From Candidatus Heimdallarchaeota archaeon (lineage in GTDB: Archaea > Asgardarchaeota > Heimdallarchaeia > JABLTI01): DNA of 16,956 nt. Both the position numbers and the translations under genes were made by a program. Shown here in pieces: positions 2,760 through 16,956 of the stretch (its first letter is position 1; every line of letters starts with the position of its first letter). The notes below the pieces were generated by a model, which ran no database searches, was not told the origin of the DNA, and was given only the letters and a program-made list of their open reading frames with translations. The DNA is taken from positions 1 to 16,956 of the forward strand of contig JAHLVW010000039.1 of NCBI GenBank assembly GCA_019058275.1, in the 5' to 3' direction.

Positions 2760-3308
2760 TCATTCAATCCTTTTCCTTCTGCTTTTCAAGTAAAAAACTG
2801 AAACCAAGAAAACAACCGAAGCTAGAATTAGTAAAGAGAAGCTAATCATACCATTTGCAGATGGTGATTCTGAATCAATGTTAGGAATTGTAAGTATAGG
2901 AGTCAATGCATCAGATACCATGTAAAATCGGACATCAATTCTGAAATCAATATCTTCCTCAATCCAAACATGAACATTATATAATAGAATATTGTTATCG
3001 TTGAAACCTCTAGTAAAATCTATTGTGCTATTCCAAAGCTGATGATAATTTCCATGATAGTCATATATTTCCCAGAGGATGTTTTTAGCAGTAAGTGTCC
3101 GATTATCAGATAGTGCTGTGATGTTAGCAATGAATGGTTTAGTTGAAACTTCAATCTCACGAGCTTCTCGTTCTTGCCAACCTGAACCAATGTAATTTGT
3201 TCCCTCGAAATAGATTCCACTAAGATGTGGAATACCTCTTGTATTCCCTAAAATTATTACAAGTAGGATGGACACTATTATAACTTTCTTTCTCAATATA
3301 TTATGCAT
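2760..3308 (-). CDS. Hypothetical cell-surface protein with N-terminal signal peptide, C-terminal TM helix and basic tail
   Basis: RKK followed by a hydrophobic N-terminus. C-terminus MISFSLLILASVVFLVSVFYL-KSRRKR. Several N-x-S/T sequons (NIT, NRT, NST). Confidence 0.7.
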   Translation of the reverse strand: MHNILRKKVIIVSILLVIILGNTRGIPHLSGIYFEGTNYIGSGWQEREAREIEVSTKPFIANITALSDNRTLTAKNILWEIYDYHGNYHQLWNSTIDFTRGFNDNNILLYNVHVWIEEDIDFRIDVRFYMVSDALTPILTIPNIDSESPSANGMISFSLLILASVVFLVSVFYLKSRRKRIE

Positions 3309-3411: not shown

Positions 3412-3642
3412 TCAATTTGTATCTATTCCACATCGTTTTCGAGGAATCTTAAGGACAGATTGACAATTAGGACAGGTTAGGTATATCCATTTAGAAGTCT
3501 TAGATTTGAAAAGAAACTTACGAAAATCTCCACATTCAACACAAAGATGCAAAATACTAGTAACTTCAGCTAGTTCTTTTCGCCACTCGAGAGGATCTTC
3601 CGCTTCCTGATAGCTAACACGAGTAACCAAACGCTTAGGCAA
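3412..3642 (-). CDS. Small C4 zinc-finger protein, WRKE family paralog 3 (76 aa)
   Basis: CVECG...CPNC. Shares EDP..WRKE..E.....LC..CG.F..F...CP.C...LK.PR.R with the genes at 3652-3915 and 6310-6567. TTG start with GAGGTG SD overlapping the upstream stop codon. Confidence 0.75.
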   Translation of the reverse strand: MPKRLVTRVSYQEAEDPLEWRKELAEVTSILHLCVECGDFRKFLFKSKTSKWIYLTCPNCQSVLKIPRKRCGIDTN

Positions 3643-3651
3643 AAGAACACC

Positions 3652-3915
3652 TCAGGACTCCCACTTGGGTTTAGCCCACTTAGTCTCCATGCGGTTGCGC
3701 TTACGAGGAAGCTTGAGCTCTTTCTTGCATTTTGGACAGCTGAGAAAGATGTAGTAGGACTCTTTCTTGGAAAGCTGGAAGAAACTGAACTGTCCACAAC
3801 AAGAGCAAAGACGCTGGGTACGCATCATTTCTTGGACTTCCTTTCGCCAAAGAGAAGCTTCTTCTTCCTTATCATTCTGAAACCATGGGATGTACGTATA
3901 GTGACTGCCTGCCAT
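3652..3915 (-). CDS. Small C4 zinc-finger protein, WRKE family paralog 2 (87 aa)
   Basis: CSCCG...CPKC and basic tail PRKRNRMETKWAKPKW. About 68% identical by hand alignment (58/85) to 6310-6567. Confidence 0.85.
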   Translation of the reverse strand: MAGSHYTYIPWFQNDKEEEASLWRKEVQEMMRTQRLCSCCGQFSFFQLSKKESYYIFLSCPKCKKELKLPRKRNRMETKWAKPKWES

Positions 3916-4137
3916 AAGAGTAAGTAATGCTGAAGGAAATAAAAAATAAGGGTAGGGAGATAGAAGAAAGTATTTGTTCTATGAAAAGCTAAACAATAAG
4001 ATCTTTTTGAGTTGTTCAAAACTAATTATTTGAAAAATCTAATATTTTCTTACAGTTTAAGCAATAGTAAATAACTTTATCTGATTCTTTTTCATCTTTT
4101 TTCAAATTACTATGAAAATATTTTGGAATTGAAATTT
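3658..4137. repeat. Diverged direct-repeat segment, copy 1; copy 2 is at about 6313-6790
   Basis: Same gene order and orientation. Shared nucleotide blocks include TATTTTCTTACAGTT, AAAGTATTTG (3967-3976 and 6615-6624) and CTGGGTACGCATCATTTC. Confidence 0.8.
4022..4137 (-). pseudogene. Decayed copy of the 49-aa zinc-ribbon gene at 6669-6818
   Basis: Minus strand reads KFQFQNIF, a 1-nt frameshift, then NLKKDEKESDKVIYYCLNCKKILDFSNN*, versus KLGFEDICWNNLKKDDKKTNKVAYYCSNCKKILGFSSK* in the intact copy. No start codon. Confidence 0.75.
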
Positions 4138-4189
4138 ATTGTTAATAAACGTTAAATATTAATTCAGCTCTTTTCTATTAAGAGAGGGA

Positions 4190-4810
4190 TTGCTAATTAA
4201 CAAGAAATCTTTACACTTTGAATATTCATTAGCATTTAACTATTATATAGCATCAAGTTATCATACTGCCTTTATAGCAAATCTACTCACAAATTATTTT
4301 TCAAATTTCCCAAATAATTTACCAAATGACATAGTTAAGATGTTTAAAATTGCTGATGATTATGCAAACAAAGTTCATGAGGTTATGAAAAAGCAACGAA
4401 AAGATGTATTTCTGCAATACAATAGTAAAGAGGAAGCTGCTATTGCAATGGATAATCAATATCCTGAAGAAATAAATGGTTTGCCTAAACATATAACAGA
4501 TTTAGGTGAATTGCTTTACTTGGAGAAAACAACTCCGCAAGCATTAACAGGTATTAGTAATAACATTGACTATCTAGATTTTGTTTGGTATATTCAAGCT
4601 GAAAAGATAGTGTTATCACATGCATATCTTGAAGCTTTTTTAACCAAAACAATTGATATCGTTTGTAAATCTGATCATTCTGTAATTGAAAAATTTCTCA
4701 ATGTACAAATAAAAGAGGAAGAATATCAAAGTAAAGGTGCTTACTTCAAGTCTGAGACTCGATTAAAAATTTCTGCAACCCTAGAAGGCAAACGTCCTAC
4801 CCTCAACTGA
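4190..4810 (+). CDS. Hypothetical helical protein, 206 aa, possibly truncated or chimeric at the C-terminus
   Basis: Long ORF with TTG start after GAGAGGGA. No confident family. IVLSHAYLEAFL is weakly HEPN-like and the last ~25 aa look NUMOD3-like. Confidence 0.6.
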   Translation: MLINKKSLHFEYSLAFNYYIASSYHTAFIANLLTNYFSNFPNNLPNDIVKMFKIADDYANKVHEVMKKQRKDVFLQYNSKEEAAIAMDNQYPEEINGLPKHITDLGELLYLEKTTPQALTGISNNIDYLDFVWYIQAEKIVLSHAYLEAFLTKTIDIVCKSDHSVIEKFLNVQIKEEEYQSKGAYFKSETRLKISATLEGKRPTLN

Positions 4811-5008
4811 AAGTATTTTTGTCGGAAGAAACACTGAAAAATAGAAAATTCAGTATAAAAATTCCTCTATTTTTCAATTTAGTAAAGAATTTTCAGGATT
4901 TATTAAATTTAAATAGAATTGTACAAGATTTCAAATTTTTCTTTATTCACCATTATTCATCAAATTACAATTGCAGATTATTTTCTATTTATTTATCCAA
5001 AGATTAGA

Positions 5009-5995
5009 TTAGAACCAAAGTAGTATACCAGTAATTAAACTTATTATACCAATAATTAAACTTGCTATACCAATAATTAAACTTGCTATACTAATATGTT
5101 TTCCCCATTTCTCCATAAAAGATTTCTTTGTAGGAGCATTAATTGGAGAAGAACGGACTAATCTATCAACGACGCTCTTATCAAGGACAATATCTTTAAT
5201 CAACTCGGTTTCCTTGACAGATTCACCTTTTTTTCCTTTTTCAAATTCCCAATGTCTGGTGAGATCGTTATAAAGAATTCTTTCACCATAATTTACCTTA
5301 CTTTTTCGCTTCATTTTTAAAATTTGTTTATTTCCATCTGAATTTGGTCCTTCTAATTTAGCTAAAGACCAAGCGTATAGAAATTTATCACTTTCTTTAT
5401 CCATTAGATTTCTTATTTGAGCAACTGCTTCTGGATAATTCTCATTATTAGTGTCAATAATTATCCCAAGAACATAAGCAATATATTTTTTTAAATAAAA
5501 ACTTCTAGTATTTATCATCTCTTGAATTAAATCAGGAACTAGATTGTCACAGACATTAACTGCCTTTAAACCTATATCGCCAATAGACAAAACAGCTTTC
5601 GTTTGTACTACTTCATTTTCTCGTTTTTTAGTTGTTGTAAGCAATGCATCTATTACTTTCTTATCAGAAGCTCTTATTTTACCTAATGTTAAAGCTGCTC
5701 TTCTTTTTACAATATTTTTGCTTCCTATGAGTAGTTTCTCAATAATAACATCTATTAACATATCACCTCCCAATTCTTTAGCTTTTACGCCAATTTTTCC
5801 TATTGATTCAATTAATCTTTCACTAACCCAATGATTTTTTTCATTTTTTATTCTATCAGTTAAAGCATCTACTATCTTCTTTAATTTCCTATTAGCTTCG
5901 TCTTCATTTTCAATTCCCTCTAATGGTTTTTTTCCTATCAGTGATTTTTCATCAATAATTTTTACTCCTATTTCACCTAAAGTAATCCCAGCCAT
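5009..5995 (-). CDS. HEAT/PBS-repeat protein with C-terminal membrane anchor; downstream part of a frameshifted gene spanning 5009-6249
   Basis: Repeats such as VKRRAALTLGKI, VQTKAVLSIGDI and LKKYIAYVLGII. Hydrophobic C-terminus. The frame stays open upstream of the annotated ATG to 6103, and that ATG lies inside a HEAT unit (EIRRMAGITLGEIG). Confidence 0.8.
   Translation of the reverse strand: MAGITLGEIGVKIIDEKSLIGKKPLEGIENEDEANRKLKKIVDALTDRIKNEKNHWVSERLIESIGKIGVKAKELGGDMLIDVIIEKLLIGSKNIVKRRAALTLGKIRASDKKVIDALLTTTKKRENEVVQTKAVLSIGDIGLKAVNVCDNLVPDLIQEMINTRSFYLKKYIAYVLGIIIDTNNENYPEAVAQIRNLMDKESDKFLYAWSLAKLEGPNSDGNKQILKMKRKSKVNYGERILYNDLTRHWEFEKGKKGESVKETELIKDIVLDKSVVDRLVRSSPINAPTKKSFMEKWGKHISIASLIIGIASLIIGIISLITGILLWF
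5025..5095. repeat. 21-bp tandem repeat, about 3.4 copies, encoding the heptad GI(A/I)SLI(I/T) transmembrane tail
   Basis: ATACCAATAATTAAACTTGCT is exact at 5046-5066 and 5067-5087, with a variant at 5025-5045 and a partial copy at 5088-5095. Confidence 0.9.
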
Positions 5996-6060
5996 TCTAC
6001 GAATTTCAAATATAAAACCATCATTTAGTGATTTTATTATTTCATTAATTATCCCTTCAT

Positions 6061-6249
6061 CTAGAGGTTCTCTAATTCTGAAAAATCGTAAAGCAAAATA
6101 ACGTTAAGAAAACGATTTTCCTTTAGTAAATACCTTTTAATTTCTTCATCATCTTTGGATTTCTCATCAAATTTTTTTCTATTAATTTTTATTCCCAAAT
6201 AGAAAATAATTTTTGCACATTTTCTAAGAAATCTATATCTATTACTCAA
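6061..6249 (-). pseudogene. 5' fragment of the HEAT-repeat gene, separated by an apparent 1-nt deletion near 6104-6105
   Basis: TTG start with GGTGA SD. Restoring one A (CTT AA- CGT to CTT AAA CGT) fuses ...LLKENRFL to RYFALRFFRIREPLDEGIINEIIKSLND...IRRMAGITLGEIG. Confidence 0.65.
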
Positions 6250-6309
6250 TTCCTTTTCACCATAATTTGGTATAATTATTGTTGTTATTTATATTTAAAA
6301 ATAATGGTG

Positions 6310-6567
6310 CTATTTCCACTTTGGTTTTGCCCATTTTGTTACCATGCGATTACGTTGGCGAGGAAGCTTGAGAACAGTCTGACAGTTAGGACAGGAAAAG
6401 TGAATGTAGTAAGGCTCCTTCTGAGCGAAGAGAAAGAGATGGAACTGACCACAGTGAGAACAAAGTTTCTGGGTACGCATCATTTCAAGAGCTTCCTTTC
6501 TCCATAGGGAAGGATCTTCACCCTTATCATTTGGAAACCAAGGCATGTAGGTGTGATGAGAGGACAT
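6310..6567 (-). CDS. Small C4 zinc-finger protein, WRKE family paralog 1 (85 aa)
   Basis: CSHCG...CPNC. Start moved from TTG 6594 to ATG 6567 by alignment with the 3915 paralog (MSSHHTYMPWF vs MAGSHYTYIPWF). Confidence 0.85.
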   Translation of the reverse strand: MSSHHTYMPWFPNDKGEDPSLWRKEALEMMRTQKLCSHCGQFHLFLFAQKEPYYIHFSCPNCQTVLKLPRQRNRMVTKWAKPKWK

Positions 6568-6668
6568 ACTTGAGATAGACGATTCTAAAAACAAAGGAAG
6601 ATGGTAGAGAAATAAAAGTATTTGGAGTTGAACTTAGCAATAGGTTCTTACATGTGAGCTGTTCCTAG

Positions 6669-6818
6669 TTACTTGCTTGAGAATCCTAGTATTTTCTTAC
6701 AGTTCGAACAGTAATAAGCAACCTTGTTTGTTTTCTTATCATCCTTCTTCAGATTATTCCAGCAGATATCTTCGAACCCCAACTTTTCTTCACAGTGTAG
6801 GCTAATTACTTCGGTCAT
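6669..6818 (-). CDS. 49-aa zinc-ribbon-like microprotein missed by the ORF track
   Basis: Hand translation: MTEVISLHCEEKLGFEDICWNNLKKDDKKTNKVAYYCSNCKKILGFSSK*. Its homolog at 4022-4137 shows conservative amino-acid changes, which supports coding status. Confidence 0.7.
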   Translation of the reverse strand: MTEVISLHCEEKLGFEDICWNNLKKDDKKTNKVAYYCSNCKKILGFSSK

Positions 6819-7169
6819 ACTTTCCTATCACATTTTCAGTGTGAGTGCATTATTTTCATTTTGTTAGTTTTAAACCTTATTATTCTGTTATTTTGTTGTG
6901 AAAAAATTTATGAGAAGTGTAACCTCTCTTTCAAAAATCAGTTTTCATCATGAATTTATAAAAAGATTAACAAAACATATTAATTCAACTATCTCAGATA
7001 AACAATTGTTTGATTAAATTTCAGTTTATATTGATTCCTTCCTTTTCCCCTTGTCATAAAATTTAATTATATATGGACGAATATTTATTATTGGAGAGAT
7101 GCATTCAATACTTGGGAAACTACACTCAGTGTTTTTCCTTGGGTTTCTCTCTAAAGTTATACATTTAGG

Positions 7170-7269
7170 AGATAGTCAATGAGTGGGAGGGTAAACAACT
7201 AACTTGCGATAGAACAAAGCTCTTTTAGTTCTTCAATCTCTCATGAACCTCCCGCTACTTTGATTTTCT
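7170..7269 (+). ncRNA. Candidate structured small RNA (long hairpin) carrying SD-led mini-ORFs
   Basis: 7182-7190 AGTGGGAGG pairs with 7248-7256 CCTCCCGCT (one G:U). 7174-7179 AGTCAA pairs with 7260-7265 TTGATT. Inner stem AGAAC 7211-7215 pairs with GTTCT 7228-7232. G:U pairs favour the + strand. Confidence 0.35.
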
Positions 7270-7330
7270 ACAGGTATTTTAAATGAAAAACTTGATATTC
7301 AAGGACTCAGAGCAATATGGACAAATTAAT

Positions 7331-7434
7331 TCTTCAATAGTCTTCTTAATAGTACTAGCAAATAAGAAATATCAGTTGTTAGAAAAAGATATATAGTATC
7401 TTTCCATCTACATATAGTAAGGAAAGTTTAAAGC
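7331..7434 (-). CRISPR. Candidate degenerate mini-CRISPR (pseudo-repeat, 36-nt spacer, pseudo-repeat) upstream of cas6
   Basis: Minus 7434-7400 GCTTTAAACTTTCCTTACTATATGTAGATGGAAAG and minus 7363-7331 ATTTGCTAGTACTATTAAGAAGACTATTGAAGA both resemble the array repeat GTTTGAATCGTACTATTGTAGTATTGAAAT. They are separated by 36 nt. Confidence 0.4.
7421..7433 (+). promoter_or_regulatory. Putative archaeal BRE/TATA promoter of the cas operon
   Basis: Purine-rich GGAAAG followed by TTTAAAG about 65 nt upstream of the cas6 TTG. A strong SD (GGGAGG) precedes the start. Confidence 0.35.
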
Positions 7435-7496
7435 ATTAATTCCTAAATGTACAATGAGAAGAATTTTGAGAGAAATAGATTTAGGGAGGAATAGTT

Positions 7497-16252: not shown

Positions 16253-16953
16253 GTTTGAATCGTACTATTGTAGTATTGAAATTAAGTAATGCCAACTATT
16301 AATTGTGGATATAAAGAAGTTTGAATCGTACTAATTTACTATTGAAATTCCATTCATCAATATCTTGAACTAATGCTTCTTTTGTGTTTGAATCGTACTA
16401 TTGTAGTATTGAAATTACGTTCTTCCAGCCTTGAAAAGTTTAATTCCAAGTCGAATTTGAATCGTACTATTGTAGTATTGAAATTAAATTCCTTTAATTC
16501 TTCCATAAGGAAAATAAATAGTTTGAATCGTACTATTGTAGTATTGAAATTTGTTTCAACTGGTTGAGTAATTTTCTTAAATATAAAAGTTTGAATCGTA
16601 CTATTGTAGTATTGAAATAAACTTTATCAAAAAATGCTCTGTAAAAGATGTGATAAAGTTTGAATCGTACTATTGTAGTATTGAAATAAAGTTAATATAA
16701 AATTTTTGTCATAAATATAACTGGTTTGAATCGTACTATTGTAGTATTGAAATAAATTGAAGAATACATGAATGAAAAAAATGATACAAGTTTGAATCGT
16801 ACTATTGTAGTATTGAAATTCTGGTAGAATTGATATAATTGATAAAATTTTTGAAAGTTTGAATCGTACTATTGTAGTATTGAAATGAGAATTTTCACTA
16901 ATAGCAACTAGAGGTTTAGCATAGTTTGAATCGTACTATTGTAGTATTGAAAT
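16253..16953 (+). CRISPR. CRISPR array with 30-bp repeat GTTTGAATCGTACTATTGTAGTATTGAAAT; 11 repeats and 10 spacers of 36-39 nt, probably continuing past the window
   Basis: Repeats start at 16253, 16319, 16386, 16455, 16521, 16589, 16658, 16724, 16790, 16857 and 16924. Stem TACTA-TTG-TAGTA. The ATTGAAAT 3' handle gives + orientation. Confidence 0.98.
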
Positions 16954-16956
16954 TAA

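Follow-up and report, generated by a model that had tools for sequence, protein, structure and literature searches.

An unnamed zinc-ribbon microprotein family detected almost exclusively in a single genus of Heimdall-group Asgard archaea, with three members encoded near a type I-B CRISPR-Cas operon

In the work presented here we analyzed a stretch of DNA from Candidatus Heimdallarchaeota archaeon (contig JAHLVW010000039.1, 16,956 nucleotides (nt), in the following referred to as the window), which represents the entire contig C26 of a 4.12-Mb assembly with 32% G+C. Three open reading frames (ORFs) on its minus strand, encoding proteins of 76, 87 and 85 amino acids (aa), are members of an unnamed zinc-ribbon microprotein family. 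With hardly any exception, this family was detected in a single genus of Heimdall-group Asgard archaea. By composition and by analogy to known small zinc proteins, its members may be small nucleic-acid-binding regulators, a reading to which we assign a probability of roughly 0.45.

An earlier note on this DNA, made from the sequence alone, had described the three ORFs as paralogs. All three are present on the minus strand (Table 1) and encode clear paralogs with four conserved Cys residues. An alignment of the three proteins contains 25 invariant columns, including W-R-K-E, CxxCG, CPxC and LK.PR.R. The identity between the 85-aa and the 87-aa protein, given as ~68% in the note, was measured as 67%, and both proteins indeed end in RNRM.TKWAKPKW. 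Profile searches within the genome retrieved family copies with E-values of 1e-39 to 1e-51, which is far beyond chance. Between orthologs from related genomes, the ratio of nonsynonymous to synonymous substitution rates (dN/dS) amounts to 0.04-0.11, corresponding to strong purifying selection. Thus, the three ORFs are real coding genes and should be called in annotation. Homologs of 85-87 aa recur in metagenomes. The residues EDP, FLF and CPNCQ.VLK, which the 85-aa protein has in common with the 76-aa protein, are ancestral family states; gene conversion between the two copies was ruled out, since their synonymous sites differ. For the 85-aa gene, an alternative TTG codon at position 6594 would extend the protein to 94 aa. 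Since the orthologs begin with MSSHHTY, the ATG is the start codon.

The 87-aa and the 76-aa genes form a tight pair, in which the TTG start codon of the second gene lies 9 nt beyond the stop codon of the first. A Shine-Dalgarno-like GAGGTG hexamer overlaps this stop codon and ends 5 nt ahead of the TTG. As judged from this arrangement, translation of the pair might be coupled. A complex prediction for the two proteins returned a score of 0.00, which is under the mark and argues neither way on whether they bind each other.

Proteins of the long type (83-87 aa) consist of an aromatic N-terminus (SHHTYIPWF), an acidic linker, a helix with the signature W-R-K-E-A..E-M-M-K-T-Q, a four-Cys ribbon (CxxCG ... 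CPxC) and the tail LPRKRNRMETKWAKPKWK, which is basic and contains Trp. The 87-aa protein shows this order in full, with an N-terminal SHYTYIPWF motif followed by the acidic linker, the WRKE helix, the C4 zinc ribbon and the basic, Trp-rich tail. Both ends of the long type are missing in the short type (68-76 aa); the 76-aa protein is orthologous to proteins of 68-70 aa (MKRNMSR.GYQE...) that are placed after long copies in other organisms. Among 10 members of the family, three of the four ribbon cysteines are invariant and the third one is nearly so, being replaced by Ser in the homolog P0010. An AlphaFold model based on ten homologs has predicted local distance difference test (pLDDT) values of 85-91, corresponding to good confidence, across residues 21-70. 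It contains one helix (residues 19-30), followed by five short strands (33-35, 42-44, 46-50, 54-58 and 65-69) with the four cysteines. The conserved CxxCG and CPxC of the alignment and the strands of the model agree with two CxxC-type knuckles on either side of a beta hairpin, as is characteristic of zinc ribbons. According to the model, the protein is a helix plus a generic zinc ribbon and no more, and it would presumably bind zinc. Both termini are highly conserved and yet modelled as disordered (pLDDT 50-62). The charge of the protein is bipolar, with isoelectric points (pI) of 5.1-6.8 for the N-terminal half and ~10 for the C-terminal half.

Profile scans with Pfam, NCBIfam, PADLOC and PHROG gave only weak generic zinc-ribbon matches, none of which reached threshold. 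A Foldseek search against the PDB had its best matches at E 0.1 (eL43, ZPR1, RPC10, Rpp21), below significance, and VIA-align over 48,161 chains reached a best Z of 4.7. No significant neighbour was retrieved by Foldseek from BFVD (best E 0.028), and the best match of a sequence search of the PDB was at E 0.12. In the ESM Atlas, the shape search returned generic or chance neighbours (best template modelling (TM) score 0.5), and the feature search returned unnamed Bacillota and primase zinc-ribbon clusters at 0.94, which have few features in common with the family and serve as leads only. The best structural neighbours are zinc-ribbon modules that bind RNA or DNA (eL43, eL42, Rpp21, RPC10 and NrdR), all of them sub-significant. 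A relationship to the C-terminal zinc ribbon of TnpB/Cas12f (PF07282) was not supported, as only 2 of 10 members matched with 16 bits (E 0.009-0.013) against a cut-off of 26.3. The structure prediction and Foldseek comparison proposed in the earlier note thus led to nothing beyond a generic zinc ribbon, and its description of the family as unrecognised agrees with the sub-threshold results from the family libraries.

The distribution of the family is very narrow. HMMER searches over 1.84 billion representative proteins yielded 11 clusters at E<=1e-3, a search of a 5.8-billion-cluster index yielded 10 clusters, and a metagenome scan yielded 9 loci with the family. Such searches had been suggested before, together with one for viral homologs in IMG/VR, where no relative of the family was detected. 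Among 400 Asgard genomes, the family is present in 8 of the 10 other genomes of the window's genus; apart from one weak match in a second genus it was found nowhere else, which, as these are incomplete metagenome-assembled genomes (MAGs), is to be read as not found and not as absent. The matching public records are labelled Candidatus Heimdallarchaeota, and one record labelled Bathyarchaeia is identical to a copy from a member of the genus. In a tree, the family falls into five groups, namely the long proteins of 85-87 aa, one clade with proteins of 83 aa and another with 78-93 aa, the short proteins of 68-76 aa and distant relatives of 62-95 aa which share the helix and the ribbon alone. A 240-aa fused form (P0014, L082:192-914), in which a bacterial solute-binding domain is joined to the ribbon and tail of the family on a 1.7-kb metagenome contig, was set aside as probably a chimeric assembly.

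Related genomes contain one strong copy apiece, which is mostly a solitary, strongly conserved long copy. In the genome of the window, three contigs together carry three intact long copies and one short copy, besides three that have decayed, and the local expansion proposed in the earlier note is thereby borne out for this genome, with ~7 strong copies as compared to one per related genome. The intact solitary copy on contig C42 looks ancestral, since its synteny with an aldo-keto reductase gene is kept in a related genome. The order of a long followed by a short gene with ~10 nt between them recurs at the loci L026 (twice), L035 and L083. This tandem is therefore old, as it is shared by several organisms. 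Counted outside the window, tandem pairs occupy five loci, in each of which at least one partner is decayed, the pair in the window being the sole exception. Decay of the partners fits redundancy of paralogs better than an obligate two-protein complex.

The nucleotide similarity between the two long copies in the window reaches ~190 nt past the ORFs on the upstream side. Upstream of the 85-aa gene, we detected a 49-aa micro-ORF that belongs to a second family of zinc-knuckle microproteins, and a remnant of such an ORF precedes the 87-aa gene. With a micro-ORF or its remnant ahead of both long genes, the two copies must have arisen by duplication of a unit composed of the micro-ORF and the long gene. 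Further copies of the 49-aa ORF are present on contig C82 and in 5 of 10 genomes of the genus. Thus, the genome has duplicated the long gene several times, once together with the 49-aa micro-ORF, and several of the duplicates have decayed.

A box with the pattern ACTTTC-N4-ATCTCYYT lies upstream of the family genes, beginning ~55 nt ahead of the ATG in most of them, with a TATA-like run 8-12 nt behind it. The box is kept in nearly all clades of the family, even in those with only ~40% protein identity. In the solitary copy on C42 and its orthologs, where the ATG is further off, the box holds its spacing to the TATA-like run and not to the ATG. This constant spacing points to an element acting at the promoter level. 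The exact pattern occurs 41 times in 11 genomes of the genus as compared to 11 times for a reversed control. Apart from this, we noticed four TnpB-like genes of ~500 aa that are 65-78% identical to each other (C33:5231-6730, C70:4685-6160, C16:33020-34417 and C105:36777-38201). These copies share a conserved upstream region, seemingly including the start of a divergent gene, and the copy on C105 looks frameshifted. Similarity of the family's upstream region to that of tnpB is restricted to the 18-nt box.

The earlier note had proposed that the proteins are either nucleic-acid-binding regulators or accessory proteins of mobile elements or defence systems, possibly modulating Cas proteins. Binding of nucleic acids is plausible from the composition, with an acidic N-terminal half and a C-terminal half of pI ~10, and this part of the proposal is retained; the second part is not, as set out below. 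The analogues considered were the archaeal C(P)XCG micro-proteins (PMC6562870), Rpp21, ribosomal zinc-ribbon proteins and Mu Com. In the tentative scheme that we favour, the ribbon and the basic tail would grip RNA or DNA, the acidic and aromatic N-terminus would contact a partner, and expression of every copy would be driven by a common promoter module made up of the box and the TATA-like run.

Several points weigh against this scheme. Family, sequence and structure searches revealed no significant homology to any family of assigned function. Since the structural matches are all below threshold (E >= 0.1 for Foldseek against the PDB, Z <= 4.7 for VIA-align), the assignment of nucleic-acid binding draws on composition and analogy. 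Other genes share the box, as it also precedes those for 62-aa and 52-aa zinc-ribbon proteins and copies of tnpB (C33, C105), and enrichment was likewise seen in another Heimdall family of genomes without these proteins. Judged by its occurrence, the box marks a shared promoter class or a regulator site and is no proof of autoregulation. Furthermore, accessory copies of the family often reside where few genes belong to known families, with HEAT-repeat proteins as neighbours, of which one is weakly TIR-like and another carries AlbA_2. For these copies, a residue of doubt is therefore left, as they may serve a function connected with variable or defence-like regions. The idea of a private autoregulatory operator, which had been considered for the box, is weakened, since other genes have the box ahead of them and it turns up in genomes in which no family member was detected.

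Small single-domain archaeal proteins built on two CxxC/CPxC knuckles are also known from Haloferax volcanii, for which one-domain C(P)XCG zinc-finger micro-proteins such as HVO_2753 have been described (Nagel et al. 2019, PMC6562870). For Haloferax, 12 of 16 deletion mutants are reported to have phenotypes only under special conditions (PMC6562870). Sets of this kind are often lineage-specific, with many members per genome that are regulatory or have no function assigned, and the same applies to the family in the window. The latter differs in that its proteins are longer than the <70 aa of the Haloferax set, have an additional SHHTYIPWF N-terminus, a helix and a Trp tail, and come from Asgard archaea. 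An HVO_2753-like identity was dismissed on the basis of the matches to PF07754 (HVO_2753_ZBP; E 0.1-0.3, 11 bits against a cut-off of 33.2) and NF011481 (E 0.008, 16.2 bits against 61).

The translational activator Com of phage Mu, a small zinc protein, binds mRNA. The Joint Genome Institute (JGI) label on one homolog (P0008) reads 'phage FluMu protein Com', and the ribbon spacing is indeed alike, with CxxC, a short F strand, ~7 residues and I.I/L.CPxC followed by a basic C-terminal region. However, Mu Com has neither the N-terminal helix nor the N-terminal motif of the family. Its gene lies just upstream of the mom-type modification gene that it activates and overlaps with it, whereas no mom-like gene is located downstream of the family copies, where the genes vary (another member, a HEAT protein, a metallo-beta-lactamase (MBL) hydrolase, an epimerase, a thermosome or an ATP-binding cassette (ABC) ATPase). 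Identity with Mu Com was rejected, as hhalign gave a probability of 29% over a ribbon core of just 29 columns (E 5.7e-4 for a single-pair comparison). PHROG 13819 (gpCom) matched the 76-aa protein only, at E 0.05. In Pfam, Com was not among the matches at E<=10 for 10 members, a search in which most of those above E 0.1 are removed by the filters of HMMER. The 'Mu Com' label is thus unjustified.

As an alternative to nucleic-acid binding, the proteins could be adaptors that use the aromatic N-terminus and the Trp tail to dock onto proteins encoded by their variable neighbours, e.g. HEAT-repeat or membrane proteins. The termini, conserved yet modelled as disordered, would suit such a role, and HEAT_2 proteins are adjacent to family copies in the window, twice at L026 (4873-5901 and 12203-13651, one of them fused to AlbA_2) and at L035 (6307-7812, with a sub-threshold TIR-like match); another one (C73:44106-44744) adjoins the copy of the 49-aa ORF on C73. 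However, these HEAT_2 proteins are not orthologs of one another. Roughly 25-30 genes in the 4.1-Mb genome match HEAT_2 at E<=1e-5, and with loci that are few and related the adjacency may be due to chance. The solitary conserved copy, moreover, has unrelated neighbours, which are ordinary and varied: aldo-keto reductase, response regulator, NFACT, SUI1, MBL-fold hydrolase, ABC transporter and FtsX permease, as well as nicotinamide adenine dinucleotide (NAD)-dependent epimerase-like genes and a thermosome-like gene (read by eye rather than by Pfam scan, the epimerases from their N-termini). We therefore regard adaptor function as unlikely, although it fares best among the alternatives, and treat the adjacency to HEAT_2 and TIR-like genes as a lead only.

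A more far-reaching version of this idea would see the accessory copies, i.e. the pairs of long and short genes and the 49-aa ORF, as leader genes of variable cassettes. They would act with HEAT-repeat, TIR-like or AlbA_2 neighbours as a so far undescribed microprotein-controlled sensing or defence module of Heimdall-group archaea, with the box co-regulating tnpB and other zinc microproteins. This proposal is speculative, and we give it little credence.

The turnover of the copies would be explained if the genes formed a selfish or mobile module, for instance a toxin-antitoxin-like pair or the cargo of an insertion element. In favour of this can be cited the birth-and-death pattern (with decay of three copies in this genome and of partners at five tandem loci), the short duplicated units of a gene plus ~190 nt of upstream sequence, and the occurrence of the box ahead of tnpB copies. 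However, the copies are not flanked by terminal repeats, a transposase or an integrase, the IMG/VR scan was empty, and the likeness to the tnpB upstream region amounts to the 18-nt box alone. Together with the synteny of the solitary copy and its strong purifying selection across species, these findings make a selfish module improbable.

Equally improbable is that the family provides an accessory subunit, particular to this lineage, of core RNA machinery such as the ribosome, RNA polymerase or ribonuclease P. The top, non-significant structural and sequence neighbours (eL43, eL42, eS27, RPC10/RpoM and Rpp21) and the very strong conservation of the solitary copy would fit this idea, and Rpp21, eL43/eL42 and RPC10/RpoM resemble the family in that their four-Cys ribbon comes after a helix and is flanked by basic stretches. 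However, these proteins are universal in archaea while the family is confined to one genus, every match is below significance and the paralogs decay freely.

The three genes are located next to a complete type I-B operon (Cas6, Cas8b/TM1802, Cas7, Cas5, Cas3, Cas4, Cas1 and Cas2) of the clustered regularly interspaced short palindromic repeats (CRISPR)-Cas type, with a CRISPR array of 11 repeats of 30 nt (16253-16954; repeat starting GTTTGAATCG). This location had led to the suggestion that the proteins bind Cascade, regulate the adjacent operon or assist other defence genes. The 85-aa gene is indeed only ~900 nt away from cas6 and divergent to it. Among the accessory copies, the one at L035 adjoins a HEAT protein whose TIR-like matches are weak and fall short of the Pfam threshold, those at L026 are located beside a HEAT_2+AlbA_2 protein, and the L083 copy is within 4 kb of a TIR_2-PNP protein. 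However, adjacency to cas genes was found in the window only, and a neighbourhood comparison as proposed in the earlier note showed neither recurrent co-location with cas genes nor a flanking transposase or integrase. At E<=1e-10, none of the 10 other genomes of the genus, 8 of which have the family, contains a homolog of the window's Cas8b. Cas1 is present in 3 of 11 genomes of the genus and outside the window never on a contig with a family copy (G004, G010), which, given the incompleteness of the MAGs, does not prove absence. Anti-CRISPR (Acr) models of NCBIfam gave no match to the zinc proteins, and the sole PADLOC match to them, of the 87-aa copy to a 2TM effector model, had E 0.042 and 11.7 bits. 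Homologs are scattered over contigs, and the conserved copies are placed among housekeeping genes and show no connection to either defence or mobile loci, the outcome that the earlier note had named as refuting its reading. We conclude that a Cas-modulating or defence-related role is the least probable of all readings, that the adjacency to the CRISPR-Cas locus is most likely the coincidence of a variable genome region, and that the three genes are not to be counted as CRISPR-associated.

As small nucleic-acid-binding regulators or otherwise, the proteins represent in kind an ordinary lineage-specific zinc-ribbon microprotein family. Small zinc-ribbon proteins make up a large and mostly uncharacterised share of archaeal proteomes. 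The present work adds to them an unnamed and strongly selected family, specific to one genus within the Heimdall group of Asgard archaea, which are closely related to the eukaryotes. Its conserved terminal motifs, the conserved promoter box and the natural knock-outs among the paralogs should be helpful as handles for experiments.

Table 1. Coordinates of family members, upstream elements and neighbouring genes. Positions without a prefix refer to the window, those with a prefix to other contigs.
Feature	Position	Strand	Remarks
Short-type member	3412-3642	minus	76 aa, TTG start; without N-terminal motif and Trp tail
GAGGTG, Shine-Dalgarno-like hexamer	3648-3653	minus	read directly from the sequence
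Long-type member	3652-3915	minus	87 aa; genome profile search E 4e-51
Box ACTTTCTTCTATCTCCCT	3954-3971	minus	55 nt before ATG of 87-aa gene, followed by T-rich TATA-like run
Remnant of 49-aa ORF	4022-4105	minus	27 aa, C-terminal half; upstream of 87-aa gene
Long-type member	6310-6567	minus	85 aa from ATG; genome profile search E 3e-51
Degenerate box TACTTTTATTTCTCTACC	6603-6620	minus	ahead of 85-aa gene
49-aa micro-ORF	6669-6818	minus	upstream of 85-aa gene; first CPxC knuckle degenerate (SLHC)
Intact copy of 49-aa ORF	C73:44959-45108	minus	CPYC...CPKC
Solitary long copy	C42:58108-58362		intact
C-terminally truncated copy	C42:11349-11573		90% identical to 85-aa protein over 71 residues
Decayed long+short pair	C16:44856-45347		frameshifted, stop-bearing
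Further box sites, genome of the window	C16:44800-44817, C22:57334-57351, C33:5192-5209, C52:10667-10684, C105:38208-38225		
HEAT_2-repeat protein	5009-5995	minus	328 aa, C-terminal hydrophobic segment; 315 nt downstream of 85-aa gene
182-aa protein	2760-3308	minus	hydrophobic N- and C-terminal segments; 103 nt downstream of 76-aa gene
295-aa protein	1839-2726	minus	transglutaminase-like core (PF04473, E 1e-5), N-terminal hydrophobic segment; 33 nt downstream of 182-aa gene

The CRISPR array runs off the end of the contig and continues on contig C68 at about 4000-4450; a second Cas1 is encoded at C76:1534-2412. None of the 10 spacers of the array matched the genome of the window. The stretch of ~900 nt between the 85-aa gene and cas6 (6595-7496) is devoid of ORFs of at least 50 aa, and neither an Rfam match nor a CRISPR-repeat-like sequence with up to 9 mismatches was detected in it; an Rfam scan of the whole window likewise gave no RNA family.

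The similarity of the 182-aa protein encoded downstream of the gene pair to AcrID1 (E 0.03, 14.6 bits against a cut-off of 30) is probably due to chance. A conserved pairing of the family with this 182-aa membrane protein was rejected, since its only homolog is a paralog on C42 (12784-13323, plus strand). This paralog is 78% identical and lies beside the truncated family copy; the zinc-ribbon gene and the 182-aa gene were duplicated together as a segment.

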